The notes beneath the pieces were generated by a model. The model searched no databases and was not told where the DNA came from. It was given only the letters and a program-made list of their open reading frames with translations. Below, one piece after another: positions 12,798 to 47,884 of a stretch of 64,000 bases of DNA; position 1 is the stretch's first letter; every line of letters starts with the position of its first letter. The stretch covers positions 26,052,954 through 26,116,953 of the forward strand of contig CP154954.1 of assembly GCA_039621445.1 (NCBI GenBank), given 5' to 3'. A program made the position numbers and the translations under genes. Source of the stretch: Euglena gracilis (Eukaryota).

Positions 12798-13031
12798 AGG
12801 GGCTGCGGCCTGAGGGTAGGGGACGAGAGGGGCGACTCTCTGCAGACACAACCGAAACAACAAAACAAACAAAGGGAACCAGGTCCAGAGCCGCAGCGGT
12901 CATACACACTGGGTAAGGGAGGTAAGAAAAAACCCCAAAAGAAAAACATCCTGACAAAAAAACGACTCCACAGCCCAGAACCGAAAAGGGAACAGGTCAG
13001 CTGCAGGTTCGGCAGAGCAGCTTCACGGTGG

Positions 13032-14662: not shown

Positions 14663-14682
14663 TCACAGCGGACGGAACAAGG

Positions 14683-16077: not shown

Positions 16078-16111
16078 AAAAGGACAGGGGAAGAAAGGAA
16101 GCCTGACACCT

Positions 16112-20470: not shown

Positions 20471-20481
20471 GGGAAGGGGAG
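20471..20481 (+). promoter_or_regulatory. Polypurine tract of element A
   Basis: GGGAAGGGGAG immediately before the 3' LTR. Confidence 0.85.
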
Positions 20482-20985
20482 TGTGAGTCAGGGGTGCTGA
20501 GTGCCCAAAACAACATAACCTAACCCAACCCAACCTGATGACTCTGCAGTTAGGATTAGGAAAATCTTATTAGGAATTTCAATCAGCTGACTCTATCTGT
20601 CCCTGTGCAGGGCTCTGTCTCTGTCACTCATTCTGTCAGTTGTTCAAGAATTATCTGGGATCAATTATCATCAATTGTTTGGACCAATCATTATCTTACC
20701 CTTGGTTTGGACTTCTGGACTTTGGTACTCTCTTCCTTTGTGGTTTGCTTGTATTGTGCTGTTGGATTTGTGGGATTTTTAAACTTTTGGCAAATACGAG
20801 GTGTGAAACTTTGAGCCAACCCACCTCATTTCACCCAAAACACCCTAAAAACAAAAGAAAATGCAATTTTTAAAACAGGCCGCGAGGGGAATTGAAATCA
20901 CCCTGGGCAGGGTAAAAGATCCTACGCAACGGGGTGCCGGCCCCGAGGGACTGGAAACTCCAGGGCAGGCACCACGGTTACAACA
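20482..20985 (+). repeat. 3' LTR of element A
   Basis: Direct repeat of 8030-8533, followed by TSD GTGC. Confidence 0.95.
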
Positions 20986-29888: not shown

Positions 29889-30321
29889 AGTGTACGTCCC
29901 ACCCCGGCTTTTCTACTTATGCTTTCCTCCCGAAAAGCCTGTGGGGGGAGTAACAATAAAATTTGCTTCCCTTTTCCCCTTTTGAATGCAAAGCACACAA
30001 GCAGAAGAATTGGTGGGACCGCAGTCCCTTATATGAAAGTGACTTTCGCTCTTTCGAGCTTTGTAAAAGAAAGAAATAAAACTTGTATTCAAATGGGACT
30101 TCGCCCTCAGTATTCTAAAAGAGAATTGCAAAGCACCAAACCCAATAACCTTGAATTAGGAACCAGTTACTTTCGCTAAGCTTTCGCTAGCTCTGAGACT
30201 CTCTCTTTGTCTTATGGTTTTAACCATGCCACTGTGTACGGCCCGGCCGTAGCCAGGTTGTAGGCCGTAGCCCCTTGTATCTGGTACACAGTGCCATGGC
30301 AGAATGGCTGCCTGGTACACA
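29889..30321 (-). repeat. 3' LTR of element C
   Basis: Direct repeat of 47166-47598; PPT GGGAGGGGGA lies at 30322-30331 on the minus strand. Confidence 0.95.
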
Positions 30322-30701
30322 TCCCCCTCCCAGGGCTCTGCCCGATTTCCCTTCTGGACCAGGCCAGTCGGGATGCCAGGCACAGTCCCAGGTTCAGGGA
30401 GACAGTACCAGGATACCATGGTCTGGTTCCCAATTACGGTTACCTTGTTTGGAGCACAAAGCGCAAAAGAATTCTGACGCGCATGCTGTGCTTTGTGCGT
30501 CTTCTTACTTGACACCGTAGTGTCCTTGTGGTCTTGAATCTTCGCGATCAACATGTTATCCACCGAACTTAAGGCGATTCCGCCATTGTGTCTTGGGACG
30601 GCGTTGAAGGCGATGATGAAATGCGTATACACGCTCGAGACTTCGCTCATTGTGGACTACGCCCATTTCAGCCGAAGCTGATTGTACGAGACAGGAAACC
30701 C

Positions 30702-33700
30702 TCAACGTTTGTGGGTTTCCTTGAAGTACTCACCCATGTGTGGGTCTTGTACCAAGGTCATTTCGGTTGGACGTAGGTCCAGGGTACCCTTGTCAGGATT
30801 ATCCATGTCAATCCTGGGGATAACCCAACTTTTGACTTCTTGTATCTCCTTGGGAAGTTCTGTTCTGAGCGTTTCAGCTCGCTTGTGGAGGTAAATTTGC
30901 AAGTTTTCCCAGAAAACTCTCGGAAAAGTTGCAGGCCAAATGTAGTAGTTCCATCTTGGATGATTTGCTGGTACTTGTGGTGGCATGCCAGGCATAGCGT
31001 TGAAATCAACGTTATGCACGCGGGATGCACAGGCACAACGGGTTATATGGGGTTTCAGAATGGAGCCAACCCATTCTGAATAGTGTTCGTATCCATGTCG
31101 TTCTGGTGGGTACTCAGGGAGTAACCAACGTTGTGTGGTTTCAGAAACCGTTGAAGGCTTTGTAAACAGTGGGTAGATGACGCGTTTCCAGTCGTCATCA
31201 TTGAACAGCAGGGGCAATCGCCCTTTTGTACATTCCACAGCCAGTCTGATTCCGCCGGAATCAGTTTGGAAGTCAAAGGCGATTCCGCCGCGGTCAAAAG
31301 CCTCAGCTTTCTTGAAGCCTTTGTGTTGGTACATTTGTCGTTTTGTTTTGTAAAAATTAAGGAAATCTTCCAGAACGTCCTCGCTTCCGGGTACGATCCT
31401 GAGATTTCCGCCATCTGCGGGCAAATATATGTCTGCCCGTAGGCAGTTGACACAGAAAACTGGTACGTCACGGTCTCTGTCCTCTTTCGACCAACGGAAG
31501 TTGTTCAGTTTTCTCCAGGCGATGATGCAATCACCGCAAATCAAAGCGGCTGTATTTGGAACGAATTCGTTGTGGTGAAAATTTTTCCGTTTGTTGTCCG
31601 CATAACAGACATGCACAGCTGGCATGCTGTTACGAATGTTGTGACAAACAGTACAGAGCCATGTTGTTTGACCATTCGGTCTATTGTCAAACAGGAATGT
31701 TTCCCCAAGGTATTGGGCAAACACTCTTGGTGATCTGGCATTGTAGAATCGCCAAATATGGCGAACATAGTAGTTGTACTTCTGTTCATTGAAAAACAAT
31801 GGTTCAATCCACTTGTTCAACAAAATTCCGCGTTCGCGGGCTGATTGTATCATGGCAATGCGTTCTTCGACGCTCGGCAGGTTAGAGATGATGTCCTCTT
31901 GCCAAAGAGTGGCATTATCGTCAACGGGCATGTTTTCCTCTTGCGAGGTCTCAGACGTTGTATCTTGTCGAGTTCTACCTCGGAGGGTAGAAGTGACCCG
32001 GCTTTTCCCGGCCACTTCGGTATATGTCGGTGCTGGTGTGGTAGCAGCTGGGGTCTTCGCCCGCTTTCCTGATTTGCTACCACTCCCAGGTGGAGGTGGT
32101 TTTGGTTCGTTGTGTCGTTCAGCAGGTTTGCACGGTTCTGCAGGCTGTGGTTTAGCCTTAGGCTTACTGCCTTTCTCTTTCCGCTGTGGCGGAAAAGGGC
32201 GTTCTGTAGGCGACTTTGGAGCAGGTTTGACCGTTGGTGTGGTGGTAGGTGGTACGTCAGGAACCGTCGGTACCACCTGTTCAGGTGTGTGTACCACTAC
32301 GGGTGTTGTGTCATGTGGTGGCGTTTGTTCGACCGTAGTCGATTCAGTTGTTGTCACCACTTCGGGTGTTTGGACATCAGGAGTAGAGCTGGCCGCGTCT
32401 GCTGCCAGTGCTGTGGTGGAAGCCGTAGCTTCTTGTGTGGGTTGTTCGCCAAGTCCCGTGTCACGGGGACTTCGCGTTGAAGAGGAAGACCTCGATCGCA
32501 CCATTGCAACCATCGAGGCTACGCCACTTCGGACGCTTCCGAGGACGCGTTCTGCAGCGCGTCCAACTTGTGGTGGTATGAGTATAAAGTCGTCTGGTTC
32601 TTGGTATCTGTCGATACCTTCGTGTTGTTGTCTTGTGATCAGTTCGCGAAATGCGATTATCTCAGCATCAGTTACTTCCTGTCCAGCTTCCGCATGTGCG
32701 GGAGTAGGTGGAACCACGTCTGTCGAAGGCACTGCGGCCGTTGTGGAATCTGCAGGCACTTCGGCCATTGTAAATTCTGCAGGCGCGTCAGGTTCCGCGT
32801 CTGGCAATGGTGTTTGTGGTCGTGTTTGAGCAGGCGTTGTAGCTGGCACTTCGGCCCTTAGAGCATGTTGTACGCCGGCATCTTCGGGTTCAGACTCCAC
32901 AGATGCGGAGGAAACGGAGCGTGTACTGTGTTCATTGTCTGTCCGTTCTTCCATTTCCTCATCGCTGGATGACCCAGAAGAGGAAACGGACGAAGAGTCT
33001 GAAGAGTGTACGGGAGTGTGTTCCACAGACATTGTAGGTGTAGGTGGAGGTTGTGGCAAACGTTCTTCCGAACGTTTGGTTGCAGGCTTTGCTGCTGCTT
33101 TGGCTGTTGACGTTGTAGATGATGCAGCCGTTGGAGGTTGTTCAACTGCAGACTGCGCTGCTTCGGACTCCGCCGGCTGGGGTTCAGGGAGTTTTATACG
33201 TGGTCGCAGACGGAAATTTTGCCATCCGACAAATTTGTTTCCTCCCGATCCGCGAGGAAGCCAGTCCAGTATTGGGATGGCCAACCCATCCTTATTTGTA
33301 CGTTTGCCCTTGAAAAATGGGGCAAAGTCCTCTCTTCGGAGGGTTTCACCAAACAGGCGTTTGATGTACTTCCGTTTTCCGTCTTCGTCCCATTCAGGTC
33401 GAAGAGGGAGGTATTCTTGTGGGAGTTGTTGTTTTGGGTTGAATAAATTGTAGATTTCCAGAGCATAGGACACCCATGCTCTCCATTGGAACGTCTGCAT
33501 GTGCAGAAGCATTTGTCGGTGGTTTCGTCTGGCGTATCCGATTTCCCTGACTTCGAGGGGATTGTGGCAGATGTGTCCAAGTAGTCTTCGTTGTTGTTGG
33601 GCCTCCGCCCATTCGCGTTGGTGGGGCTGCGCCCTTTGTGCGTTTGGGCGGTCGGTTGTCCGACCGCGCACGCCAAAGCCCCAGAAGTCCACGGGGAACT

Positions 33701-36700
33701 TGTGGTGGCAGTGGGTGCACCAAAGCACGAATTTTTGTGGGTATGTCAGGTCGATTCCGACCACTTGGAAGTGGGGGCCGTAGTGTTCGTTGAGGAAGAT
33801 TTGGTAGTTGTAACAGAACGTTTCGTGTGTCACCAATTGTATATCCTTTGGAAGTGGGAATACTTCCCATTGTATGCCTTGTGGTCCGATTTCTCGGATA
33901 TTGTCGAACATTGTCTTCAGTGCGTCAAGGGACGATTCCCATCCGTATTGTAACTTTGGATGTGGCAAGTAGTGCGCTTGGCTGGCGGGCATTGCAAATG
34001 AACCGAAGTTCATGCAATGGAATCCGAGCCAAAAAAGTAGTTGCCAGAAACCCGGCAAATTGTCGATGCCATCCTGGCTTTCGTAACAGGAAATTGTACC
34101 GTCGAAGAAAAAGCCACGGGCTTTTTCCTTGTAGAGTTTGACCATGTTGTGATGTACTTCAGGAGCAACAACCCAAGGGTGTTGTTCCTCATAGTACTTG
34201 TGCATAATTGTATCACATCCGTCTGAAATCCAGAACAGATGGTCAATCATAAATTGTACGTCCAAGTCGTAACCAGGTGAGCCTTCGCTCTTTCCTTTGC
34301 CTTTCTGGCCTTTCTGTCCTTTTGCGACTTCGCGCTCTTGTTCGTTCCAACGGTATGCACCGTCTTTTCGGTATGCTCGTGTTTTTCTCCACATTGTAAC
34401 AGTTACACCTGCGGTGTAATGTCCAGCGATGTCATCAGAGGGTTTGTCTGGTCGCATTTGGTGATAGATTTCTTGTAAGGAATGTTGAACGTTGGACGGG
34501 ATCGGCAGGTCATCATTGTCCTGACGATCACGTTGCGCCTGCGCGCTTTGTGGATCGTCGTCCAAACGACGACGTTGTGTGTCTGGCGTTGGACGTGTTT
34601 GTGGTGGTGTTGCAAACTCCGGTCCACGCGGACGTTTGCGCGCGTCAACGTTGTATTGTTTTGCTGGGGCCGTCAAATGTTGTAGAGCTTCCTTGTAAGT
34701 GGCGCGTTGTGCTGGCGACTCGAACCTGGGTTGACCCGAGAAAGGTTGTCCCGGTTCAACAGGTGGTTGTGTCTGTCCAGCCGAAGCCGGTTGTGAAGGG
34801 GTTGTGACAGGAGGTGCTCGAACAGGAATTGTAGATTGTGCGGGTGCTTTTGCACGTGCCGACTGCGCGGCTTGAGCAGGGGGTCCTGTTCGTTGCATAG
34901 GTACAGGTTGGTTTGAACCTGCTGCTGATGCGGCAGGCGGTGTAGATGTTGATTGTGCAGTCGAAACTGCTTGTACCGGTTTTGTTTGTGGTGCCGGAGT
35001 AGGTTGAGCTACTGGTGGCACAAGATTCGTCGCCGAAGCGAGTTGTTCCATTGGACCAGGTGGATGTGGTGGTGCATTCACACGCAAAACTTCAGGTAGT
35101 GCCCAGGTGGGTATACCCAAAATTTTGGAATTTGGACCAATGCCATCCATTATCACTCCTTTCACGTTGATGGCTCCCAAATGGGATCCAAGTTCGTAAA
35201 TTTTGTCAAGGGGAAGATATTGTTCTCCTTTGGATGTGTAAGCGAAATCCGCAGATTGTGGTACTCGTTCATAGTGAATATTGTCCACTACGGGACGCAG
35301 GGGGTTTTCTCCGACAACCCGTATCGCTGTCGGTTCCGGCAGCGGTACGGCGGGGGTTGTCGGTGGTTGCGGTTGAGATTGTACCGATGGTTGAGTTTGT
35401 ACGAGTTGTGGTGGTTGAGGGGCCGGTTGAGGTGGTTCGTCAGTTTCCATGGTATACTCCGGCTCTGGTTCTGCCGTTGTATACTCGTCATACGGCTCTT
35501 CGGCCATCTCGTCGGTGTAGTTTTCATCGTATGGCTCTTCGGCCTGCATGGCGTATTGTGATGGCATACCAGCCTCCCAGTTCCGGGCAGGTGGCATGCG
35601 TGGGGGAGAGGAAAAACGTTGTTGTGGTAAGTATATTGGTTCTTGCATTTGTACATCACCCATCTCACTTTCTGTGAGTTCAGGAGTATAACGGCGCATG
35701 TGTTCCGCGTAAGCACCCACTGGGTGCACTCCGCGGAGCACCGGCGGGACCAGGACTCCCAGGTCCCTGAGGGTTACGTTGTCTGGAAATCCGGATTCTC
35801 CGGGTTGGAAGAAGATTCTACCCGCTATCGTACTCTGGGACCACATGTCCCAGGTGGCGATAGGCTTGTTGGCGATTGCAAGCAATTGTCGGCAGTACGA
35901 ATCCCACATCACTCGGATGAAGGGATCCGGTCTGTCCTCTGCGCACATGCGCAGAGCGTTACGAATTGTATCTGTTGAAGCCGTTGTCAGTTCACCCATG
36001 TACTTGGGGAACCGAGGCATAACGGGAGCGGCATACTGCCTTTGTGGGGGTTGTGTGGCATACTGCCCTTGTGGAGGTTGTGTGGCATACTGCCCTTGTG
36101 GCGGTTGTGCGGGGTAATAGTGACTACGTAGTTGTTCAGCCCATTGTCGTTGTTCCGATTGTATATATTGTTGTTCTACCGCCGCAAAAGCAGCGCGTTG
36201 GCCACTGCTACTAGCCAGATCGTATCTCCTTGGGGGCCGCGGTTGCGGCACCGCAAACTGTTCATAGGCAGATTCCGTTTGTTGTGGAATCATAGGTTGA
36301 GATTGTAAGCCACCAAGTGTCGTTTGTTCTGGAGCAACATGCGGAACCGCATGTTGAGTCACAGGGAGATTTGCCACTACGGGCCTTGCTGCCGGAGCAG
36401 CTTGTAACGGAGGGGCTGCCACTACGGGCCTTGCTGCCGAAGCAGCTTGTACATGCCGACCGGGGACTTGCTCTCCACGAGGGAGTGCAAGTCCTCGTCC
36501 TCCCGAAGGAGGTTGTGGGTGAGGGGGTCCTCCCGTAGGAGGTTGTCCAGGGGGAACATACGGTTGGGAGGATGGAGGACCAGGTCCCCTTCCTCCAGCA
36601 TCCATCTTGAAAAAAAGCAAATAGTAGCAAGTACTGAGCTGTGGGGAAACAGAGAAATAAGGCATTGTACGGTAACATTGTACGCATGCAACCAAGTGTA

Positions 36701-36746
36701 CAGAAACACAAAAATAATTGTATGTTTGCAATAATTGTAAAATCAA
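30702..36746 (-). CDS. Large accessory ORF3 of element C, function unknown (Pro/Gln/Thr-rich spacers, two globular regions, RING-like Cys/His motif); likely start is the ATG at 36605 (1967 aa)
   Basis: Uninterrupted ~6-kb sense ORF between the chromodomain stop and the PPT. Confidence 0.85.
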   Translation of the reverse strand: MILQLLQTYNYFCVSVHLVACVQCYRTMPYFSVSPQLSTCYYLLFFKMDAGGRGPGPPSSQPYVPPGQPPTGGPPHPQPPSGGRGLALPRGEQVPGRHVQAASAARPVVAAPPLQAAPAARPVVANLPVTQHAVPHVAPEQTTLGGLQSQPMIPQQTESAYEQFAVPQPRPPRRYDLASSSGQRAAFAAVEQQYIQSEQRQWAEQLRSHYYPAQPPQGQYATQPPQGQYATQPPQRQYAAPVMPRFPKYMGELTTASTDTIRNALRMCAEDRPDPFIRVMWDSYCRQLLAIANKPIATWDMWSQSTIAGRIFFQPGESGFPDNVTLRDLGVLVPPVLRGVHPVGAYAEHMRRYTPELTESEMGDVQMQEPIYLPQQRFSSPPRMPPARNWEAGMPSQYAMQAEEPYDENYTDEMAEEPYDEYTTAEPEPEYTMETDEPPQPAPQPPQLVQTQPSVQSQPQPPTTPAVPLPEPTAIRVVGENPLRPVVDNIHYERVPQSADFAYTSKGEQYLPLDKIYELGSHLGAINVKGVIMDGIGPNSKILGIPTWALPEVLRVNAPPHPPGPMEQLASATNLVPPVAQPTPAPQTKPVQAVSTAQSTSTPPAASAAGSNQPVPMQRTGPPAQAAQSARAKAPAQSTIPVRAPPVTTPSQPASAGQTQPPVEPGQPFSGQPRFESPAQRATYKEALQHLTAPAKQYNVDARKRPRGPEFATPPQTRPTPDTQRRRLDDDPQSAQAQRDRQDNDDLPIPSNVQHSLQEIYHQMRPDKPSDDIAGHYTAGVTVTMWRKTRAYRKDGAYRWNEQEREVAKGQKGQKGKGKSEGSPGYDLDVQFMIDHLFWISDGCDTIMHKYYEEQHPWVVAPEVHHNMVKLYKEKARGFFFDGTISCYESQDGIDNLPGFWQLLFWLGFHCMNFGSFAMPASQAHYLPHPKLQYGWESSLDALKTMFDNIREIGPQGIQWEVFPLPKDIQLVTHETFCYNYQIFLNEHYGPHFQVVGIDLTYPQKFVLWCTHCHHKFPVDFWGFGVRGRTTDRPNAQRAQPHQREWAEAQQQRRLLGHICHNPLEVREIGYARRNHRQMLLHMQTFQWRAWVSYALEIYNLFNPKQQLPQEYLPLRPEWDEDGKRKYIKRLFGETLRREDFAPFFKGKRTNKDGLAIPILDWLPRGSGGNKFVGWQNFRLRPRIKLPEPQPAESEAAQSAVEQPPTAASSTTSTAKAAAKPATKRSEERLPQPPPTPTMSVEHTPVHSSDSSSVSSSGSSSDEEMEERTDNEHSTRSVSSASVESEPEDAGVQHALRAEVPATTPAQTRPQTPLPDAEPDAPAEFTMAEVPADSTTAAVPSTDVVPPTPAHAEAGQEVTDAEIIAFRELITRQQHEGIDRYQEPDDFILIPPQVGRAAERVLGSVRSGVASMVAMVRSRSSSSTRSPRDTGLGEQPTQEATASTTALAADAASSTPDVQTPEVVTTTESTTVEQTPPHDTTPVVVHTPEQVVPTVPDVPPTTTPTVKPAPKSPTERPFPPQRKEKGSKPKAKPQPAEPCKPAERHNEPKPPPPGSGSKSGKRAKTPAATTPAPTYTEVAGKSRVTSTLRGRTRQDTTSETSQEENMPVDDNATLWQEDIISNLPSVEERIAMIQSARERGILLNKWIEPLFFNEQKYNYYVRHIWRFYNARSPRVFAQYLGETFLFDNRPNGQTTWLCTVCHNIRNSMPAVHVCYADNKRKNFHHNEFVPNTAALICGDCIIAWRKLNNFRWSKEDRDRDVPVFCVNCLRADIYLPADGGNLRIVPGSEDVLEDFLNFYKTKRQMYQHKGFKKAEAFDRGGIAFDFQTDSGGIRLAVECTKGRLPLLFNDDDWKRVIYPLFTKPSTVSETTQRWLLPEYPPERHGYEHYSEWVGSILKPHITRCACASRVHNVDFNAMPGMPPQVPANHPRWNYYIWPATFPRVFWENLQIYLHKRAETLRTELPKEIQEVKSWVIPRIDMDNPDKGTLDLRPTEMTLVQDPHMGEYFKETHKR

Positions 36747-36928
36747 AATTGTAGCTCCAAGTGTAAAAATGGATTGTATAGGACCGTAGTCCTTTTAGCG
36801 AAAAGTCCTTCGCTAGGGACAAAATGGTTTGGCATCCGCCCATTATACATTTTGGCATCCGCCCATTATACATTTCGTCGAAAGTCCATGCTATGGACAA
36901 AATCTTGGACATCTTTGTATATCCTCCC

Positions 36929-39900
36929 TTAGAAGGTATTTACAGAAATGTCAATGTTGTTTCGTTTGTTCCACAGCTTCCAGTCTTGTTGGATATAACC
37001 AACAAAACTAGTTGCAGGTTCCCAAGTGTCCTCTTCGGGACCATATCCTTTCCACCGTACTTTCCAGTAATGTACACCTCTGTCGACTTTGTGGTCGAGG
37101 ATTTTGTCAACGACAAAATCATCTGTCTCAGGCAGTTTTGACCGTGGTTTGAAGTAGAGACAGGGTATTGCTTTACCGTTTGGTGGAGTCAGGTATGGTT
37201 TGAAGTCATCCATGTGTACATCCTCGACACCGTTGGGTAAAGCGACTTTGTAGCGCCCACTTGTACCCAACCGATCAAGGATCTCACATGGTCCGATCCA
37301 GAGGGGGTCCAACTTCGTGGATTGCATGCGGGTTCTACTGTTCCGAACCCACACGCGGTCACCTGGGTTGTATATCGGTGATTTGTAAGCTTGTAAGAAT
37401 TGTCTCTGTTTTTGTAAGTGTATAGCGACTACGCGCTTTTGCACATCCGTGCGCAATGATTCTACTTCAGAGAACCATGTTTCGCAACTCACGCTAGAAC
37501 GAGCAGGTCGTTCTGACGGGATGTCGCCAATGGCTGGGGGGTCTCGTCCGAAGACGATTTTGTACGGTGAGTATTGTAATATCAGACCCGGTAAAGTGTT
37601 GATATAAAATAAACACCAGGGTAATACTTGTAGCCAGGCATTGTGCGATTCTGCCAGTGAAAGTCGTAGCATGTTGACTACAGCTTTCACTGCCGCTTCA
37701 GCGCGACCATTGCCTTTTGGACGATAAATGATAGAAAAATGCTGCTCAATTCCGAGTAAACCGCAAAGAGTTGTAAAAAATCGAGAAGAAATCAAATGGT
37801 CTTGATCACTCACGATTTCATTCGGTAAACCCATGAGGCAAATGCATCTTTCTAAAAACATTTGTGCTAAAACTTGTGCTGTCAACCCTGCTTTCTGGCA
37901 TGGAATGGCTACAATGTACCCACTCAGCCGACAGACGACAACAAGAACGTAATCGTAAATTTTGTCATCTGTTCCTTTGCAAGGTTCAAGTTCCAGAAAA
38001 TCCATGCAGAGGGATGTAAAAATGTCATTTGGTACGGGGAAGAAGTCCATCGTACCAGGGGGGGTACCTCTGCGCGGTTTCACAGCTTGACAAATTTGGC
38101 ACCGTTGCGAAATTTGTAAACAGCGCTTATACAGATCTTTTTCGGTCAGGGTTGTACAGTACCTGCGACCCACCAAAGAAAGAAGTTTGGGGGCCCCAGG
38201 GTGACCTTGGTTGTGATAACATAAAAGTACGTCATCAACCAAGTCACAGGGTATGCAGTACTTGTAACCAGTATCATTCCGAAAAATCAAACGTAAAGGC
38301 GATAAGGTATAATTCTCAACCAATTCACCATTACGCAATCTTTGTACGACATCATTGTAAAAATCATCTTTGGAATAATCCCATTCTCGAAAAAAGAGAG
38401 GGGATGGGGATTCGGATCGCGTGACCCGGCGGGGGCCCGGCATTCTGCCGCGTTGTCGGTTTCCCCGTACGGGGGCTATCGGCATCCGCCGCCAAATCCG
38501 CGAGACAGGAAAATTGTCAAGTAGGTTGTCTGCGGCGTCTGCGCGCCTTGCGTATTCGTCGGCTTCGCGACTTCCGTGGAACGTGGCATCACCCTCGTCA
38601 GGGTTACCAGGGTAATGCCAGGGTGCACGTGAAAGTGGGTCAGCAACTTTTTGAGTATGACCTGGTGTATAAACTACCACCAGGTTGAATTGACTCAAAA
38701 ATTCGTGCCATCGGCATCTTCGGCCAACTGAGGACATGGCTTTGTTTAAGTCCTCGGTGTACCAGTGTTGGAGAGACTCGTGGTCTGTCAACACTAGTAT
38801 TTGTACGAGTGAACTGGCGACCCAACTTCGGAATTTTTGTAGGATAAGGACAATGGCATACGTCTCCTTTTCTCGTATGCTCCATTTGACTTGTCCTTTT
38901 CCGTCTTCACCTTGTAGCTTTCTGCTGAAGAATGCTACAGGGCGCAGTTCATTGGACGAATTATGTTGACTCAACACACCGCCGACAGCATAGTCGCTGC
39001 TGTCGACCTCCAGTACGTATGGTTTGTACGGGTCGGCAATGTCAAGCACAACATTGTCCAACATCAGTTGTTTAATTGTCGTTAGCGATTCTCGCATTGT
39101 ATCATCCCATTGTATCTTTGTATTGTCAGGAGCGCGATTTTTGAGTTGTCGCGTCAGTGGTACCGCGATTTTCGCGAAATCCTTCATGTAAATCGCGTAA
39201 TACTGCGCTAAACCCAAAAATCCTTTTAAATGGGTGATTGTCTTGATGTTTTCAGGTGTCCACTTCTTTATAGCTTCGAGTTTGCTTGGAGATGCTCTCC
39301 TTTGTCCGTTATTAAGAATGTGTCCACAAAATTTTATCGTTTCGCGAAACAAATGCATTTTCGCACCCTTGACGAAAAGCAAATGGTTTTTGAACGTTGT
39401 CAGTACGGAACGTATATCGCGGTAGTGAATATCAAGGATATCACTACCCGAATTTGTAAGTGGAGGAGGTGTGCCAATCAGCACGTCATCAATGTATACC
39501 ATTGCAAACGGTAAGTCTCGTAAAATCCATTGTATCATTCTTTGGAACATGGCTGGGCCATTCTTAACACCCATTGGTAACACCGTCCATTGGTAAACTC
39601 CGCGGGAGGTTACAAACGCGGTGTACGGTTGTGAGTCAGGGTGTAGGTGCATCTGGTGAAAACCATCCTCTAAGTCGAAAATCGACCAGAGGCGGTTTTC
39701 CGCTTGTTTTGTAATCAGGTCTTCGATAAGTGGTAACGGAAATGGATCGTCTTTTGTCTGTGAGTTCAAGTATCGGTAATCCAGCACAAGTCTCCACTTC
39801 TTCTCTCCAGAAGCATCGGGAGGCTTGGGTACAACAAAAGCTTGTGAGGTCCATTCGCTTTTGGATGGTATGATCCATTTTCGTTCAATCAGTTTTTCGA

Positions 39901-40735
39901 TCATTGTATTGAGAGCTTGTTCTCTTTCGCCTGAACAGCGAAAGAATTTTCGGTGCATGGGCTGTGCACCTTCTTTGAGTTCGATTTTACAGACACCAAA
40001 AGGTCCGCGAATTGCAGGATCTATGTCATGGGCATAGATAGGATGTTCTAAAACATCACTGAATTCGCGATTGATCTTTGTACATAGTTCTTGTGATTTG
40101 GGATGTTGACCACCGCTTTCTATCACTGCGGATAGTTGGTATTTTTGGTCATTCTGACCTTTATCCCGTAGGAATTTGTCAGTGTGGTCAACAGTTCCGA
40201 ATGCATCAAAGAAACAAACACGAAAAATGATTTCTTTCAATGGTGGTAACATGACACCGCAAAAATCTTCAAACAAAGGGGTGTCATTCGGTAAATCCCA
40301 CCACTGAAAAGTGACATACGTCAGTTGTTGGAACCATTCCGCTTCGGGATTTATAGGAATCAGTAGCACACCGCGTGCTTGATCCCGAAGGATCTTGTCA
40401 ACGACAAGAGGGATAAGTTTCAGAGGTGGATGTAGCCACAGGACCACATCACCCCAAAACTTATCAAACGCATTTGTATGGCTTGACCAGTAATTGGATA
40501 AACGAGAATGTGCTTTGGACGAAAATGCGTCAATCTCCAATTGTAGGTCCATCGACTTCGCGATTTGTGCGATTTTGGAAAACCAAGTTTCCAAAATGCG
40601 GTATTGTCCAAAATTGAACGCATTCCAGATGCGGTTCGCGAAAACTGTCGCGGTTTCAGTCCTGTGGAGGGCTGAAACACAGTTTACCGAACCACATCGG
40701 TAATACGTTGTGTCCGCAGACACTTCATCAGGCAT
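36929..40735 (-). CDS. pol: Pol of element C: Dam-like domain (HPPL), RT, RNase H, integrase, chromodomain
   Basis: [89 protein letters not shown]...VRWKGY...WEP. Confidence 0.95.
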
Positions 40736-42132
40736 TATACCAGGTGTATCAGGTGTATTGTGTAGAGGACAATTGTCGTTGGCATTCTGCCACTTGTATG
40801 CAGGGACATTGGAGGGGTTGGCATTCTGCCATTCGGGGTCAGAGAGATTGGCTTTCTGCCATTGGAGGTCCTGCTGCGCTGCGCGATTCTCGCGATTCCG
40901 AACAGGGACGCGATTCCGCGTTTGTCCAATTGTCGATGTACTTCAACACACAACGGGTAGCAACCCGGTGTGTTGTGTTCTCGTTCAGTGGTCAGGGTAA
41001 ACTCGGTACCGGTCCCGGTACCAAGTGTACTCTGGTTGTTGTGTAAAGCGATTAGTTTGGAAGGTTCAACAATACATCCACAGTCGAAATCAGGTTGTGT
41101 GGAAATTCTCCGGCAATGTGCGCATTGGTAGGAAGTGTCGGTCTGGTAGTGCATGTCAGTCGTGTGTAGTGTGTGTATGGGGGTGTTGGAAGTTGTAGCT
41201 GCTGGGGGGTGTACAGGGGTGTCCGAAATCGACACACCTGGTGGAAAACGTAAAAGTTGTGCAGCTGGGCGGCTACTCGACACCGAAATTTCTTCAGGCC
41301 TTTGGGCTTTCGCCTTGGAACCCAGTGAAACGTGGGGGGTTAAGCTACTCGCTTTCCCTACCGCATGGGAAACGTGCGGTAAAAGTGTAGTGGGCAGGGG
41401 GGCAGCTTTCTCTTTACCCCTAGGGTAGGAAACGGTGTTTTCGGTTGTAGAAAACGTTGTGGCAAGGCGGGGGGACATCTGGGTAGATGTCTTGGGGGAG
41501 AAATTCGGTGGTGTGGGTTGTGTGCGTGAAGTAGTGCGCAAACCGAGGGAGGGGCAATCCACAACAAGGCGGTTCTGACGCAAGAACGGAAAACCCAAAA
41601 TTACGTCAGAGCCGCGAATACCCGATTCGTAACTCCAGGTACCCAGAAAATTTTGTGTGTGTGGGGGCTGTGAGTGGTGCTTGGGGATGATGGGGAGAAG
41701 TATGTCCAAAAAGCATCCCAAGTCACCACCACACATGGGGCTGTTGTCAGCAGTCATAATTTTGATGGGGTACTTGGCTTTCACCAAGAGGGAGTTGGGA
41801 ATTAATCCCGTTCGAAAGAGAAGGGGGATTCGACACCCTGTGTCGACCAAAATTTTGCATTTGGTAGAAAAATTTTGTGTTCGGATTTCCGCTTGGACCA
41901 AAAGTTCCATGGGGGGTACGCAAAGTGCAGGATCCGGTGTAAAATTGTTGTCTCTCCAACTATTCCAGGATCCCGTTCCTACTTTGCTCAGCATTCCAGG
42001 CAGAAATTTGGAGTGGGGGGTGGGGGACCCGAAAATTTTCCGGGTACCGACCAAAAAGGCAGATGGGCAGGGAAAGTAAGGTTGATCAGGTCCTACTTCC
42101 GTCTGTTCATCAGCCCAGAGGTCCGTGCCCAC
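40735..42132 (-). CDS. Aspartic protease region of element C, in frame with gag across one TAG
   Basis: [12 protein letters not shown] and [17 protein letters not shown]. Confidence 0.85.
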
Positions 42133-42147
42133 AGACCTCGGGCTCCC

Positions 42148-45100
42148 CTACTCCAAGTCCGATTCAGCACTTCGGCTGTTTATCGTTTTCTTGTGTGAGT
42201 AGATAGCGCGCAATGCGCGGACCGCATTGCGGTCATCCTCCAACGAGGATTCAGAGTTCTCATCCCCCTCCCTGCCCGAAGCCGGGGTTCCCTCCTCCAA
42301 AGAGGAGATTTTGAACCCGACCTTGTGTTTGTTGTTGTGTTTTGTATCATTGTAGTGACGTTGGTTCGGGCGGGGAGAGCGAGAACGGTAACATTTGGAC
42401 GAATGGTGGTTATGTGATCCACAAAGGGAACACTTTTGTCGGTTTTGTGATTTTTGTCGGTTTTGTGATGGGCTTTCACCCCTTGGAGGTCTTGGTGAAC
42501 GGAATCCCGTTCGACCACGGTTCTTGTTGTAATCCGGTTTCCCGGATGACGATCGCGAAGAAGATGATCCACTTCGCGAACGTGATCGCGATGAGTCGCG
42601 ATTTGTATCACGCTTGTAAGGGGGTCGGGGTGATCGACCACGAGGTGCGCGATCGCGTCCGCGGTCGCGGAACGGTGATCGGGACCTTTGGCGATAACCC
42701 GAAGATTGTGATTGTCCAGATTTGTGTGAAAACCCAGAGGAGCGTGAGCTCCGCGAGGATTGTGAACCCCTTGGACTCTGATACCGCTTTCGCGTATCAG
42801 GGTGGGGGCAATCACGGGACGTATGCCCCGTTTTGTTGCACAAAAAACAAGTTTTGTCAGAAGATTGGTCAGATGAGCGCGGATAGCGCGTTTTTGTATC
42901 TCCCCTTGGGGAGTTTGTATGTTTACCGTATCCCCTTGGGGATTTTGGAGAAGGAGACTTTTGTAGGGCACTTACCGTACCGCTAGGGAGACCAGCGGTA
43001 GGGTGGTGGGTATAAGCCGATTGTATCTGTCCCAAAAGTTGTGAGAGTTTCATTTGTTTGGATACATAGTTCCATCGTTGTTCAAGTGTGAGTTTGTTGT
43101 CCGCGAGTTCCTCGCGGTGAATGTCCTTGATAATTGTAGGAATGAAATGGAGGAGAACCGCATCGAATTGTTCTTTCATTTGGTTCTCTCCCAGTTCATC
43201 AACCTCAGAAGCCAATCCCAACCATTTGGAATACCAAAGGTCGATGGACTTCCATTTTCGGTCACTGGGCGCGAATTGCCGCCATTTTTTCTCCAGCGTA
43301 ATTCGCGAAATGAGGCTTGAACAGGTTGACGCATATTGGTCAACCAGTTCATCAAAAGTTATCCGATTCCGGATCACAAGTTGTCGGGCGCGTTCTTTTT
43401 CTTCCTTGGGGAGGCAATCAATGAATTCCATCTTGATTACCTCAGGGTTCCCGTCTTGGGTTGGACCCTTCAAGTCCCAGTAGTATGTCCAATCGCGCCA
43501 AAATTGTTTCCAGGTTGTGGGATCTCCGTCCCATTGTGGCTTTACCTTGTTGGCAATTGTAATTGTACCTTTGAAATCGCGTGGTGGACCGCGATTTCCA
43601 TCGTAATTGTTGGGGTAAGGTTGTTGTTGTGGCATTCGCGAATGCGCATCCATGATGGTACTCATGGTACCGTAGGTACCATGGGTATTTGGTACATCGC
43701 ACTTCCGCGAATTGTATGGTTGTGGTTCGCGATTCCGCGATTCGGATTGTAAAGGGTCGCGATTCCGCGATTCGGGGTGTGGCAACATACCAGGGAGGTA
43801 GGACTCCCGTTGTTCACCCGCAAATCGGGGAACCGCGGTAAATTCCGTGTTTCGCATTCGCGATCCATGGCCAATACCCGGGGTAGGGGTATGGCTCATA
43901 CCGCGAATCAGTCCCGATTCGCGTATTTCTTGTTGTAAAATCGGAGGATTCGCGGTTTTTGTGGTAAAAACCGGTTCCTCATCCGAAGATTCACCCTTGT
44001 GCGGGGGAATCTTGATTTGTGGTATAAACGGGCGATTATAATTGCGATTGTAGGCATGTTCATGATCATGTGCATCCGTGGATGCTTGTAGGGCATGCGC
44101 ATCCGAAGATGCTTGTAGGGGTGCGCATACTGCGCTTTTGGAAGGATTGGCATCCAACGAATCGCGAATTTGATGCACAAAGTCGCGAGTTGGATGTCGG
44201 GCATCCGAAGATGCTTCGGTTGATGCGCGAAAAGCGCGTTGTGAGCTGGAAGTTGCATTTTGACCACCGAAAACGGTGTTTTCATGGCCAAAGTGCGGGG
44301 GGTTGCGGGGTTTTGCATGAATCTCATCCAGACTCAATGCAAAATCTTGTATGCTTTGTTCCAATGAACCAACCACTTGGAAAAGGTCCGAAATTCGTTC
44401 AACATCACACTGCAAACGCTTAATACGTTTGCGGTATGAGGGTAGTTCATCCAAAAGTGGTAGTTTGTCAACAATGGAGGCAAAATCTGCTGAAAGCTTT
44501 GGAAAAGTGGTGTCCAAGAATTGGACCCGCTTAACCAAAGTTTCCATTGCGGTTGTAAGGGTGTTCAACCGATTCTCGGTTTGTGGTTTTGTGGTACCCA
44601 ACGTGGGTTGGAGTACCCCTACCGCATTTTCAGCGGTTTTGTCATCCATCATTGTAGAAAGTCGGTTCTCCAACACCGAGATTTGTTGTTTTAGTGTGAG
44701 AACTTGTTGGGTGACCGAATTTTCGGTCCTCATCAAGGTTTCACAAAATTCTTGTAAGTTTTCCTGATTTTTCGCAAGCATTTGGTCGTAAAATGTGCGA
44801 AAATCAAGGGGTAGTTCGACTTCGCGAACCGTTTGTCCATCCGAGGATGGTTGGAGTCCGGAGACCCTTGTAGAAAGTGTTTGTACGCGTTTTTGTAAAT
44901 GGGAAGTGGTGGATTGTAAGGTTTTGTGTTGGGTATTCAAATCCGCAAGTGCGGTTTCAATGCCGGTGATATCCGGAATTGATTTTTGAATACCGTTGCA
45001 CCGTTTGTGCAAATCCGCAAACGCGGATTCGATTTTGTTCACATCCGCTTGTAACTGATTGTGCAAATCGGTTACAGTGGATCGTAATGCTCCCATACTG

Positions 45101-46308
45101 GGATTTTTGGTGGAAGTTTCCGCAAAGCGGCGTTGTAAGTCCCGAATTGCAGTTTGTAGTCCCGAAACATCCGCAAAAGCGGTTTTCAGGTCTGCAAACG
45201 CAATTTGGAGGTCCGCATTCGCGGTTTGGATGGTAGTTATGACCGTTTCTCGGTCTTGGAGTTCCGCATTCGCGGTTTGTAAGCTAAGAATCACCGCATC
45301 GCGGGATTGGAGTTCCGCCGTAGCGGTTTGTAGCGCATTGGACGCAGTTTCAAGTTTTTGTATGTCGTTTTGCCACTTTTCATGGAGGAAATCTTGCCGA
45401 TGCGCGATTTCCGCCACTTGAGTGTGCAATGTGGTCAAATTGTGGGAAACTTCACCGCATTTGCAGGAAGTTTGTTCCAAACGAGCAATCCGCTCTTCCA
45501 GTTGTTGAGCAAAAGCTCTTTGTACATAGTTTTCGCGTATTTGTGTAAAATTTTGATGAAAACTTGCGTTTTCATCACCCAAACGCAAAATGCGTTCCTG
45601 GGATTGTTGTACAACATTGGATAGGGTTGAGAAGTGCTCATATGAGACATATGAGCCAAGTTCCGCACCCGTAGGCGCTTTATCCCGTTGTTGTAGGCGG
45701 GACTGCATTTCTTTCATTGTATAAGAAAAGTTTTCCAGTTGTGTGAACAATTGTTGTAAATTTTGTTGTAAATGTGAAAATTTTGTGTTATTCCGCGATT
45801 CCGCGGTTTGGAGGGTCTCTTGTACCTGTTGGAAGTTGTGTACCAAGGTGTTGCGCAAAAATGCGTCAAAACCTTGGTGGAGGTTCTGAAGGTCCATTGT
45901 AGTGGAGTTAAAATTCTTTTGGCAAAATTGTCCAAATTCTTGGATATATTGCCAAAGGAAGTCCAGCTTGCCGAAAACGGCCTTGTGACTGTCTTCATCA
46001 AATTGTAGGACTTGGTTCAGTGTTTTGGCGCAATTTTGGACACATGCTTCGGTGTGTCGAAATTGCTGTTGTAGTGGGTGGTTCTCCGGTAAATTTGCGA
46101 CTACGCGCTCAACGGTATTACTGGAGAACGAATCCCGGTCTTCTTCGGGGTCATTGTCCATGGGAACAATGACACCGGCAGTGTCCGGGACCACCAACCG
46201 CATTTCAGCGGACCAAGGTAGTTCTGGGATTTCTCCCAATTGTGGAGGGGGGGCAAGTCCCGAATGGGGCTTACCGGTGGTAGGGCCGGGGGGGGTTGGA
46301 AAAAACAA
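42148..46308 (-). CDS. gag: Gag of element C (long coiled coil, capsid-like region, two CCHC knuckles, RS-rich linker)
   Basis: 1386-codon ORF with WDGDPTTWKQFWRDW, CFLCNKTGHTSRDC and CSLCGSHNHHSSKC. Confidence 0.9.
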   Translation of the reverse strand: MFFPTPPGPTTGKPHSGLAPPPQLGEIPELPWSAEMRLVVPDTAGVIVPMDNDPEEDRDSFSSNTVERVVANLPENHPLQQQFRHTEACVQNCAKTLNQVLQFDEDSHKAVFGKLDFLWQYIQEFGQFCQKNFNSTTMDLQNLHQGFDAFLRNTLVHNFQQVQETLQTAESRNNTKFSHLQQNLQQLFTQLENFSYTMKEMQSRLQQRDKAPTGAELGSYVSYEHFSTLSNVVQQSQERILRLGDENASFHQNFTQIRENYVQRAFAQQLEERIARLEQTSCKCGEVSHNLTTLHTQVAEIAHRQDFLHEKWQNDIQKLETASNALQTATAELQSRDAVILSLQTANAELQDRETVITTIQTANADLQIAFADLKTAFADVSGLQTAIRDLQRRFAETSTKNPSMGALRSTVTDLHNQLQADVNKIESAFADLHKRCNGIQKSIPDITGIETALADLNTQHKTLQSTTSHLQKRVQTLSTRVSGLQPSSDGQTVREVELPLDFRTFYDQMLAKNQENLQEFCETLMRTENSVTQQVLTLKQQISVLENRLSTMMDDKTAENAVGVLQPTLGTTKPQTENRLNTLTTAMETLVKRVQFLDTTFPKLSADFASIVDKLPLLDELPSYRKRIKRLQCDVERISDLFQVVGSLEQSIQDFALSLDEIHAKPRNPPHFGHENTVFGGQNATSSSQRAFRASTEASSDARHPTRDFVHQIRDSLDANPSKSAVCAPLQASSDAHALQASTDAHDHEHAYNRNYNRPFIPQIKIPPHKGESSDEEPVFTTKTANPPILQQEIRESGLIRGMSHTPTPGIGHGSRMRNTEFTAVPRFAGEQRESYLPGMLPHPESRNRDPLQSESRNREPQPYNSRKCDVPNTHGTYGTMSTIMDAHSRMPQQQPYPNNYDGNRGPPRDFKGTITIANKVKPQWDGDPTTWKQFWRDWTYYWDLKGPTQDGNPEVIKMEFIDCLPKEEKERARQLVIRNRITFDELVDQYASTCSSLISRITLEKKWRQFAPSDRKWKSIDLWYSKWLGLASEVDELGENQMKEQFDAVLLHFIPTIIKDIHREELADNKLTLEQRWNYVSKQMKLSQLLGQIQSAYTHHPTAGLPSGTVSALQKSPSPKSPRGYGKHTNSPRGDTKTRYPRSSDQSSDKTCFLCNKTGHTSRDCPHPDTRKRYQSPRGSQSSRSSRSSGFSHKSGQSQSSGYRQRSRSPFRDRGRDRAPRGRSPRPPYKRDTNRDSSRSRSRSGSSSSRSSSGKPDYNKNRGRTGFRSPRPPRGESPSQNRQKSQNRQKCSLCGSHNHHSSKCYRSRSPRPNQRHYNDTKHNNKHKVGFKISSLEEGTPASGREGDENSESSLEDDRNAVRALRAIYSHKKTINSRSAESDLE

Positions 46309-46519
46309 GGTGTTTCCAACCCGTCCTCGTAAGGGGGGGGCTCTGTAGGCAATTGGGTGCCAAAAGGCGCTAATTGCCAGTTCCGTTCGGGCATTCTGCC
46401 CACTTGTGAGTCAGACTCCGCAGAAGCGGAGGGGGTCCATAGACCCATTGTAGGGTTATGTTGTACCGCAAATGCGGCTGTTTTAACAGTGGGTCCGCGA
46501 ATGCGGGTTGGGTCCGTAG

Positions 46520-46860
46520 ACCCTTGTAGGGGGGGGGGCACCGCCAAAGCGGCTTGGGTCCGAAGACCCTTGGAGGGGGGGGGTACCGCCGAAGCGGCTT
46601 GGGTCCGAAGACCCTTGGAGGGGGGGGGCACCGCCGAAGCGGCTTGTTGTAGGGGGGGGCACCGCTAATGCGGTTTGGGTTCGAAAACCCAGTTGTGGGG
46701 GGGGTACCGCCGAAGCGGCTTGGGCGTCCGCCCCTTGTATGGAGAAATTTTCCACCGCAGAAGCGGCTTGGGCATCCGCCCCTTGTGGATAAAAATTTTC
46801 TGTCGCTAAAGCAACTTGGGCATTCGCCCCTTGTAAAGAAAAATTATTCGTCGCCGTAGC
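46520..46860. repeat. ~45-bp degenerate tandem repeats in the leader of element C
   Basis: Recurring CCGCCGAAGCGGCTTGGG..CCCTTG-G-run units. Confidence 0.7.
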
Positions 46861-47150
46861 GACTTCGTCTGCATTCTGCAGTCCACGAAGCGAACCTATT
46901 AACAAAGCATAGTTAATAGGTGCGTTTCCAGTGTGTGCATGTGCACTTTGCATTTCAGATGAAAAATTGGGAAAATTTTTGTGAAAATCGTAAAAATTGT
47001 AAAAATTTGTGTGAAAAGACCCAAAAAAATAAGCAAAGGTGGGGGCTCAGAGGCGTTGTGATGCAGCCGTAGCCACTTGTGCCCCTGAGACACCTCGCCC
47101 GTGCTTAGGCGCCTTTTTCTGAGTTTTTCTTTGGTCGTTCGACCGTTAAA

Positions 47151-47165
47151 CCTATTCTGCTACCA
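47151..47165 (-). promoter_or_regulatory. Primer-binding site of element C (initiator tRNA-Met-like)
   Basis: TGGTAGCAGAATAGG directly follows the 5' LTR on the minus strand. Confidence 0.75.
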
Positions 47166-47598
47166 AGTGTACGTCCCACCCCGGCTTTTCTACTTATGCT
47201 TTCCTCCCGAAAAGCCTGTGGGGGGAGTAACAATAAAATTTGCTTCCCTTTTCCCCTTTTGAATGCAAAGCACACAAGCAGAAGAATTGGTGGGACCGCA
47301 GTCCCTTATATGAAAGTGACTTTCGCTCTTTCGAGCTTTGTAAAAGAAAGAAATAAAACTTGTATTCAAATGGGACTTCGCCCTCAGTATTCTAAAAGAG
47401 AATTGCAAAGCACCAAACCCAATAACCTTGAATTAGGAACCAGTTACTTTCGCTAAGCTTTCGCTAGCTCTGAGACTCTCTCTTTGTCTTATGGTTTTAA
47501 CCATGCCACTGTGTACGGCCCGGCCGTAGCCAGGTTGTAGGCCGTAGCCCCTTGTATCTGGTACACAGTGCCATGGCAGAATGGCTGCCTGGTACACA
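47166..47598 (-). repeat. 5' LTR of element C
   Basis: Direct repeat of 29889-30321. Confidence 0.95.
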
Positions 47599-47884
47599 AG
47601 AACCCCTACCATTGAATTTTTACCAAAGCGAAACCGAGGATGTGGAAGCTACCCCCGGAGAATATGTTGTGGAAAAAATTATTTCACATAGAAAAGGTCC
47701 AAATGGACAATGGCAATTTCTTGTGAAATGGAAGGGTTGGGATGAATCGGATAACACTTGGGAACCCATCGGGCATTTTTTCCATCGTTACGCCCGAGAA
47801 TGTTTTGTTTACGCCGAGGAGGCAAATTTGAAAATCGACCTCATGGCGTATTTCAAAAAGAGAATTCGGGAGGGTTCCGTGTGA
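47599..47884 (+). pseudogene. Chromodomain C-terminus of element B pol
   Basis: EYVVEKIISHRKGPNGQWQFLVKWKGWDESDNTWEP. Confidence 0.9.

Follow-up and report, generated by a model that had tools for sequence, protein, structure and literature searches.

A 1967-codon open reading frame downstream of pol in a Ty3/gypsy chromodomain retrotransposon of Euglena gracilis: a probable accessory gene

Introduction

What is encoded by an uninterrupted frame of almost 2000 codons that lies between pol and the 3' long terminal repeat (LTR) of a retrotransposon, in the position of a retroviral env gene? This question is raised by a 64,000-nucleotide stretch of the Euglena gracilis genome (assembly GCA_039621445.1, contig CP154954.1, positions 26,052,954 to 26,116,953; hereafter the window), which contains three nested LTR retrotransposons, termed here A, B and C. 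Our subject is the third open reading frame (ORF3) of element C. LTR elements account for 22-33% of the 2.4-Gb genome of this organism, as reported in PMC11252322.

LTR retrotransposons with additional ORFs are already known (PMC11963269, PMC10309623). Such ORFs offer rare windows on the dealings between element and host, and very few of them have a known role. What is new in ORF3 is its size, its host lineage, its context of a chromodomain and a Dam-like methyltransferase stretch, and a tail domain without a sequence match in Pfam, NCBIfam or the Protein Data Bank (PDB). We found no description of a post-pol ORF of euglenid elements in the literature, where the supplements of one Euglena preprint might hold one.

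Results

ORF3 is an intact coding frame

ORF3 lies outside gag-pol, in sense orientation relative to element C, after the stop of pol (36929) and ahead of the polypurine tract (30331) (Table 1; all coordinates are those of the window). Its frame is open from stop to stop over 2030 codons (36794 to 30702). Across the stretch occupied by ORF3 there are no stops in its own frame, whereas the two remaining sense frames have 37 and 79 and the three antisense frames 34, 53 and 61. With this base composition, a run of 2030 codons without a stop would arise by chance with a probability of ~1e-37. Synonymous codon use in ORF3 correlates with that of pol (r 0.54) and of gag (r 0.40), compared with values of 0.01-0.33 for the shifted frames of ORF3. 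Three tandem repeats within the gene, with periods of 27, 9 and 27 nt, are free of indels. The ORF3 frame is coding. An additional in-frame ATG is present 20 codons upstream of the start used here, at 36665.

ORF3 is present across the element family

Parts of the stretch are held by 20 sequencing runs and most of it by 14. We compared copies in the assembled contigs of one DNA run (X1), two runs that are presumably RNA, and a metatranscriptome. X1 contains 110,270 contigs that align to element C at an identity of at least 90%. Their summed depth, a rough proxy rather than a copy census, is 0.48-0.66 M in the ORF3 bins, 0.52-0.65 M in the LTR bins and 0.59-1.45 M in the gag-pol bins. Since the depth of ORF3 is comparable to that of the LTRs, ORF3 belongs to the family at large.

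The coding part of ORF3 makes up a third of the stretch and contains none of the 12 indels listed out of a total of 32. Those listed that have DNA support affect the LTRs, the 3' untranslated stretch (30650-30653), position 36793 ahead of the ORF3 ATG or the element leader, or else are 3 nt long. The single listed deletion within ORF3 (35344-35564) removes 219 nt, which is 73 codons, and large internal deletions of the gene are confined to single contigs in X1. The pattern of listed indels, together with the in-frame deletion, fits selection against frameshifts in ORF3.

The predicted protein alternates globular blocks and low-complexity spacers

Several globular blocks in the ORF3 protein are linked by low-complexity spacer rich in Pro, Gln, Thr and Ser, which makes up ~40-45% of the sequence (Table 1). 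Around 17 of the 40 windows of 50 residues are dominated by Pro, Gln, Ser, Thr, Ala, Gly, Glu and Lys, and those with spacer composition span residues 1-200, 301-450, 501-650, 1151-1300 and 1351-1550. A short aromatic-rich island is found near residues 1310-1375, and an acidic serine run near residues 1200-1220. The aromatic-rich middle block includes the sequence WCTHCHH...HICH (residues 962-1014, window ~33560-33720), in which the Cys and His residues are arranged as C963-x2-C966-H-H ... H1011-x-C1013-H. There are clusters of basic residues just before this block (RKRPR at 657), inside it (KRKYIKR at 1078) and at 1514. A profile comparison of the middle and C-terminal blocks through their CT.CH motifs gave an E value of 0.009 but a probability of 4%, so that kinship between the two is not established.

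The highest mean Kyte-Doolittle hydrophobicity over 19 residues anywhere in ORF3 is 1.14, and the protein therefore has no membrane segment. The ATG at 36605 is followed by a hydrophilic Pro/Gly-rich head and there is no signal peptide at this start. BLASTP comparisons within the window identified neither a repeat inside ORF3 nor a paralog of it, and the ORF3 tail has no similarity to gag.

The original prediction had described an intact third ORF of ~1970 residues running in sense between pol and the polypurine tract, and this is what we find: 1967 residues on the minus strand without a stop. Both of the globular regions it singled out, one carrying WCTHCHH...HICH and the other at the C-terminus, are present as blocks, the latter covering residues 1555-1967 (30705-31943). 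Its view that the product does not look like an Env protein is likewise borne out by the lack of a signal peptide, of a membrane segment and of a match to any env family.

The C-terminal block has relatives and a conserved set of eight Cys/His ligands

We searched the last 432 residues of ORF3 (30705-32000) with HMMER against 1.84 billion representative proteins. This identified nine relatives, with E values from 6.5e-50 to 2.5e-4, identities of 26-46% and lengths of 123-380 residues. The two best are E. gracilis transcriptome proteins and are the only relatives with a named source, the other seven being unnamed proteins on short environmental contigs of 1.0-1.7 kb. We looked for relatives in their genomic context in two metagenome and two viral pattern scans; patterns were matched in these, but no relative was confirmed.

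The tail contains eight putative metal ligands with the spacing C1651-x2-C1654-x10-H1665-x-C1667-x22-C1690-x2-C1693-x24-C1718-x2-C1721. All are kept in each relative that has residues at these positions, the exception being the degenerate P0009 at C1690 and C1693. From their pattern, the CCHC and CCCC sets are predicted to be sufficient to bind two zinc ions. The relatives have a second conserved part in common, a PGMPPQ..ANHPR..IWP motif near the end of the protein. Those that reach the C-terminus stop no more than a few tens of residues from the ORF3 end, and those that extend upstream have low-complexity sequence before the domain, as does ORF3. P0004 and P0005 are nearly, but not fully, identical where they overlap, and P0006 and P0010 are alike. 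Together, the positions of the ends, the upstream low complexity and the near-copy pairs suggest that the relatives share the overall form of ORF3, and near-identical pairs are what repeated elements would give. On this alignment, the C-terminal ~410 residues of ORF3 appear to be a domain that persists in a few euglenid or environmental sequences.

Other searches returned no family. Pfam gave nothing beyond two noise matches, either for the whole of ORF3 (E <= 0.01) or for six segments of it (E <= 10); these two, to HTLV Tax (E 0.019, 14.9 bits) and to a GDSL-like lipase (E 0.096), are far below the cut-offs and were rejected. No Pfam family matched any of the 10 members of the tail alignment, and NCBIfam returned only noise for ORF3. 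Among PDB sequences there was no match to whole ORF3 at E <= 1 or to the tail profile at E <= 10, and the middle block yielded only noise at E 0.3. In word-index searches, whole ORF3 matched none of the proteins of 1081-3443 residues, the tail profile found only P0008, already among the nine relatives, and residues 700-1145 matched no shorter protein; the Atlas protein-language-model search also gave no usable match for this last region. For residues 1-1535 as a whole no relative was found by these weaker tests (the word-index searches and one Atlas query), in which the blocks at 196-345 and 425-520 had no separate search against short proteins. Rfam at gathering thresholds matched nothing in the entire window.

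The spacer before ORF3 carries splice-acceptor-like tracts

The spacer between pol and ORF3 holds a perfect 23-nt tandem duplication (36828-36875) and, at ~36662-36639, a polypyrimidine tract with a CAG, ttatttctctgtttccccacag. A second T-rich tract, this time with AAG (tttgctttttttcaag), lies 35 nt after ttatttctctgtttccccacag and directly before the ORF3 ATG. Tracts of at least 18 pyrimidines in 20 nucleotides that are followed by AG occur twice on the whole 17.7-kb sense strand, and one of the two is the tract ahead of ORF3. It looks like a 3' splice acceptor and is a candidate for this role. Since euglenozoans resolve downstream genes by spliced-leader trans-splicing, such splicing would be the simplest route to ORF3 expression.

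The stretch upstream of the ORF3 ATG is best read as non-coding, because it is T-rich and contains both the perfect 23-nt duplication and the acceptor-like tracts. One A at position 36793 is, though, absent from most X1 copies (193,359 of 254,007 depth units, 31 contigs) and from both covering contigs of X16. Without this A the ORF3 frame would join an upstream open frame that reaches as far as an ATG near 36912, which comes 17 nt after the stop of pol. The protein would thereby gain an extension of ~100 residues with hydrophobic runs such as FTLGATILILQLL. In the copy present here the extension is shut by a stop. The upstream open frame also allows for ORF3 to be expressed by re-initiation after pol.

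Element C is a complete Ty3/gypsy chromodomain retrotransposon

The LTRs of element C are 433 bp each and 100% identical, and the element is bordered on both sides by the 5-bp target duplication AGAAC. Empty-site contigs in X1 join 29883 to 47599 with five letters shared. A primer-binding-site-like sequence, TGGTAGCAG, starts at 47165 and runs downward (minus strand) directly after the 5' LTR, and the polypurine tract, GGGAGGGGGA, at 30331-30322 abuts the 3' LTR. The LTRs, target duplication, primer-binding-like site and polypurine tract are the defining features of a Ty3/gypsy LTR element. Pfam places RVT_1 (the reverse transcriptase, RT) at pol residues 372-543, RT_RNaseH at 637-752, Integrase_H2C2 at 897-957, rve at 978-1075, SH3_Tf2-1 at 1194-1245 and Chromo at 1276-1311, and this order of RT, RNase H and integrase with a C-terminal chromodomain is that of chromoviruses. 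Upstream of RT, pol residues 135-206 (~40325-40540, minus strand) weakly match the Dam-type adenine methyltransferase family PF05869 (E 8.6e-4; 19.5 bits, below the cut-off of 28.1 bits).

Table 1. Position and strand of element C, the parts of ORF3 and the neighboring elements in the window.
Feature	Position	Strand	Basis
ORF3, 1967 codons + stop; ATG at 36605, stop 30702-30704	30702..36605	-	ORF list
ORF3 residues 1-195, Pro/Gln/Gly-rich low-complexity head with 27-nt in-frame repeat (PPQGQYATQ x3)	36021..36605	-	Composition
ORF3 residues 196-345, first globular block, no family match	35571..36020	-	Composition
ORF3 residues 425-520, small second globular block, no family match	35046..35333	-	Composition
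ORF3 residues 700-1140, aromatic-rich middle block	33186..34508	-	Composition
ORF3 residues 1141-1554, long Thr/Pro/Ser/Ala-rich spacer with acidic serine run and short helical island	31944..33185	-	Composition
ORF3 residues 1555-1967, C-terminal block, the sole block with known relatives	30705..31943	-	Profile search, alignment
Eight-ligand Cys/His module of the ORF3 tail	31443..31655	-	Alignment of relatives
Conserved tail motif PGMPPQ..ANHPR.N..IWPA..PR..W.NLQ, residues 1872-1903	30897..30992	-	Alignment
pol-ORF3 spacer, 323 nt	36606..36928	-	Sequence
Element C, Ty3/gypsy chromodomain LTR retrotransposon, complete, 17,710 bp	29889..47598	-	LTR pair, target duplication, Pfam in pol
3' LTR of element C	29889..30321	-	LTR pair comparison
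3' untranslated stretch of element C, ending in polypurine tract GGGAGGGGGA	30322..30701	-	Sequence
pol: weak Dam-like stretch, RT, RNase H, integrase, SH3, chromodomain	36929..40942	-	Pfam
Protease ORF, VDTGC motif, in gag frame directly after gag TAG	40735..42147	-	Motif
gag-like ORF, 1420 codons stop to stop, first ATG 46203, CCHC knuckle	42148..46410	-	ORF list
5' LTR of element C	47166..47598	-	LTR pair comparison
Element A, 504-bp LTRs 99.8% alike, complete	8030..20985 (LTRs 8030-8533, 20482-20985)	+	LTR pair
Element B, oldest, 454-bp LTRs 98.9% alike	LTRs 7382-7835 and 48774-49227		LTR pair

The remaining genes of element C suggest recoding at two borders. Gag and protease are in one frame and are parted by a single TAG followed by GGG (42148-42150, minus strand), which suggests stop-codon readthrough. 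The protease ORF and pol share ~200 nt (40735-40942) in different frames, which suggests a frameshift. At the gag-protease border (42162-42254) a form lacking 91 nt is common to the DNA run and the three RNA-type runs, and so is a DNA variant of the element family rather than a splice product. The leader between the 5' LTR and gag (46498-46845, minus strand) contains tandem repeats of 45, 48 and 76 nt with runs of G, and many of the variant joints in X1 concentrate there.

Neighboring elements in the window

Elements A and C are both inserted in element B, the pol gene of which (27236-29953) is interrupted by element C at 29889. Neither A nor B has a counterpart of ORF3. Over long aligned stretches the A and B pol sequences share 27-35% identity with that of C, a value that rises to as much as 42% in the RNase H part. 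Element A carries an ORF ahead of RT (13391-14662) that matches C5 cytosine DNA methyltransferases (PF00145, E 3e-5), and its pol ends in a chromodomain. In having both of these modules it resembles the 'EpiLTR' type described for E. gracilis (10.64898/2026.05.21.726589). The gag-like ORFs are very long, at 1420 codons in element C and 1466 codons in element A (8397-12797, plus strand), and BLAST detects no similarity between the two or of either to ORF3. The window also contains tandem arrays: 43-nt repeats at 2631-2974, 112-nt repeats at 59864-60708, and a G-rich array with 12/18-nt spacing and a GC skew of 0.56 in the last 1.5 kb (62494-64000).

Discussion

We are confident that ORF3 is a real accessory gene, that it is family-wide, and that it is not an env. 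It is integral to the element rather than peculiar to one copy, the X1 depth over ORF3 (0.48-0.66 M) being on a level with that over the LTRs (0.52-0.65 M). The original prediction had also called the protein conserved and much larger than typical additional ORFs, and had proposed looking for a homologous host gene. Conservation is shown for the last ~430 residues, where there are nine relatives at 26-46% identity; for residues 1-1535 the less sensitive searches found none. The size claim stands, at 1967 residues against 517 for CERV, the extra protein of the nematode element Cer1 (PMC10309623). The search for a host homolog found none, a result with which, given its reach, an old capture is compatible.

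The architecture of ORF3, as predicted from its composition and motifs, is that of an intracellular and probably nuclear adaptor or scaffold, since it has no secretory features and combines zinc-type CxxC/His pairs, basic clusters, an acidic serine run and long flexible linkers. We propose the following mechanism. Splicing at the polypyrimidine-AG site that lies 35-57 nt upstream of the ATG would yield a subgenomic ORF3 RNA, and the simplest form of such splicing in a euglenid would be spliced-leader trans-splicing. The protein would enter the nucleus through basic clusters of the RKRPR/KRKYIKR type. Its folded blocks, including the putative two-zinc module, would bind nucleic acid or a host protein, with the ~800 residues of disordered spacer serving as a scaffold, and ORF3 would in this way help the genomic RNA or chromatin of its own element to evade control by the host, comparable to what CERV does for Cer1 and what Rev does for HIV. 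Our best explanation, that ORF3 serves a young, high-copy euglenid Ty3/gypsy chromodomain element as a genuine accessory gene, is not a recognizable host capture, and acts by the proposed mechanism, has in our judgement about an even chance of being right as a whole. The specific assignment of a CERV/Rev-like or counter-silencing nuclear role acting in this manner, which is drawn by analogy, is tentative and on balance doubtful.

Several observations weigh against this explanation. Intactness in a single copy carries no information on selection, because the LTRs of element C are identical. The weaker searches gave no relative for residues 1-1535 of the protein. No homology bearing on function was found for ORF3 in Pfam, NCBIfam, the PDB or the protein searches. 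AlphaFold gives a mean predicted local distance difference test (pLDDT) score of 39.0 for the tail (10-row alignment; 50-64 over the Cys/His part) and of 37.5 for the middle block (single sequence), and models of such low confidence lend no support to a fold, to the putative zinc binding or to the proposed nucleic-acid binding. The short basic clusters could be due to chance. With respect to expression, contigs 90-99% alike in the metatranscriptome and the two guessed-RNA runs cover 29 of the 30 bins, ORF3 included, but these runs may contain DNA and their cover is no proof of transcription. Bins thinly covered by the RNA-type runs, runs with a small share of the stretch and a 'leaf litter' label were given no weight as signs of habitat or of expression level. 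Among the listed contig joints and loose ends there is no splice or spliced-leader junction at the proposed acceptor or at the ORF3 start. Finally, the difference at 36793 in most copies may move the true start of ORF3 upstream.

The same observations bear on other explanations of the gene. One would keep ORF3 as a real intracellular accessory gene but give it a different mechanism, that of a RING-like ubiquitin-ligase adaptor which destroys or redirects a host silencing or restriction factor, for which herpesvirus ICP0 is the model. The eight conserved Cys/His ligands in four pairs, the long, disordered and nuclear-looking architecture, and an element family already equipped with epigenetic modules (the weak Dam match and the chromodomain) would all suit such a protein, and the Atlas search of the tail returned several RING-type clusters. 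Their scores of 0.77-0.81 are, however, in a range reached by shuffled sequences a third of the time, and no Pfam RING model matches even at E <= 10. The RING signature is C-x2-C ... C-x(1-3)-H-x(2-3)-C/H-x2-C ... C-x2-C. The second pair in ORF3 is H-x-C instead of C-x-H, the second and third pairs are 22 residues apart instead of 2-3, and a sequential reading as CCHC plus CCCC fits the ligands equally well. With the spacing off the signature and no Pfam match, RING membership of the tail is not supported, and we regard a ubiquitin-ligase role as unlikely. An origin by capture of a host gene as a processed transcript, with no role in transposition, would explain why the modular ORF3 protein, with its disordered linkers and putative zinc modules, resembles a nuclear protein of the cell and why elements A and B, with pol sequences 27-35% identical to that of C (up to 42% over RNase H), are without such a gene; the two E. 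gracilis transcripts could then be host genes instead of element copies. This is difficult to reconcile with the lack of any long cellular homolog of the tail among the 1.84 billion representatives or in the word-index searches. All nine relatives are short fragments (contigs of ~1-1.7 kb) or short transcripts, including two near-copy pairs of repeat-like character, and ORF3 itself is present at family-wide depth with codon use that tracks pol. We therefore consider a capture without function to be improbable, somewhat more so than the ubiquitin-ligase role, while an ancient capture that the element has since domesticated would merge with our best explanation.

The missing A at 36793 in most copies gives some substance to the idea of ORF3 as a surface protein, secreted and mucin-like or env-like in character, whose true start lies upstream with a hydrophobic leader, as the resulting extension has hydrophobic runs such as FTLGATILILQLL and the Ser/Thr/Pro-rich spacers resemble mucin stalks. 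Yet the upstream stretch is T-rich, has the look of a splice acceptor and contains a duplication of 23 nt, which is not a multiple of 3, so that its hydrophobicity is maybe a by-product of composition. The best 19-residue hydrophobicity of the extension is ~1.5 by our estimate, below the usual cut-off of 1.6. There is no membrane anchor across the 1967 residues, no env family match, and the cysteines occur in zinc-type CxxC/His pairs and not as in disulfide-rich ectodomains, making a surface protein very unlikely. Still harder to credit is a decaying, functionless leftover that is open only through the youth of this copy. Identical LTRs do leave almost no time for decay, and more than 1500 residues are without a known relative, but a 2030-codon frame with a chance probability of ~1e-37 must have been kept through the history of the family. 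The relatives have kept 26-46% identity to the tail and an invariant set of ligands, and the listed family-wide indels avoid ORF3. A genuine accessory gene of the element is the explanation that we retain.

A broader version of this explanation can be imagined, in which a spliced leader yields a capped monocistronic mRNA for a ~2000-residue founder of a new zinc-binding family, a nuclear scaffold that would control element RNA or disarm silencing among elements with their own DNA methyltransferases. In this full form the proposal is a long shot. The element family is massively repeated in its genome, and elements of its lineage have also acquired adenine and cytosine methyltransferases and chromodomains. 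Few proteins may be encoded as abundantly in the genome as that of ORF3, and yet it is invisible in annotations made after repeat masking. Whether retroelements of trans-splicing organisms express their downstream genes through the spliced leader is a question that ORF3 allows to be tested directly.

Comparison with known systems

The ligands of the ORF3 tail follow the order CC-HC-CC-CC. In LIM-type modules the CCHC and CCCC sets are sequential, while RING domains have a cross-brace arrangement. The order in ORF3 is as in LIM, whereas its spacings fit neither LIM nor RING and there is no Pfam zinc-finger match.

Within E. gracilis, the closest elements described are DAM-LTR and EpiLTR, Ty3-like elements in which a chromodomain is accompanied by DNA methyltransferase domains for adenine, cytosine or both (10.64898/2026.05.21.726589). 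Element C has the chromodomain in common with DAM-LTR, its Dam match being only sub-threshold, and that report, its supplements aside, is not known to mention an ORF after pol in either type. LTR retrotransposons of bdelloid rotifers resemble element C in carrying ORFs beyond gag and pol, described there as captured (PMC5408684); the likeness is one of description only.

Retroviral and errantiviral env genes resemble ORF3 in following pol, and the polypyrimidine-AG site suggests a subgenomic RNA in the case of ORF3 also. Unlike env, ORF3 lacks both a signal peptide at its 36605 start and a membrane anchor, and it matches no env family. The TRP28 antisense ORFs of Retand, Grande and RIRE2 and the env-like ORFs of Athila-type elements provide examples of a family-wide additional ORF of possibly regulatory function, as we propose for ORF3 (PMC11963269). 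The region from pol to the 3' LTR spans 2.9-6.6 kb in Retand according to the same source. ORFs of the Retand type are antisense and far smaller, whereas ORF3 is in sense, is 5.9 kb alone, lies in a chromodomain element of a protist, and belongs to neither TRP28 nor any other Pfam family.

The nearest parallel is CERV, a non-env, lineage-restricted protein of 517 residues encoded in the env position of the Caenorhabditis elegans Ty3/gypsy element Cer1, which is expressed from a spliced mRNA, is nuclear, and is needed to export unspliced genomic RNA (PMC10309623). CERV and ORF3 are alike in their predicted build of structured domains and flexible linkers, with a candidate nuclear localization signal and a Cys-rich putative zinc finger, possibly of the C4 type in CERV, and neither has homologs outside a narrow lineage, as far as CERV is described in PMC10309623. 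They differ in that ORF3 is about four times the size of CERV and appears to be self-contained, while the N-terminal exons of CERV are common with gag (PMC10309623). The likeness is drawn from the description of CERV and not from a sequence comparison, and splicing, nuclear location and RNA export are for ORF3 proposals only. From this standpoint, ORF3 would be a much larger euglenid analog of CERV.

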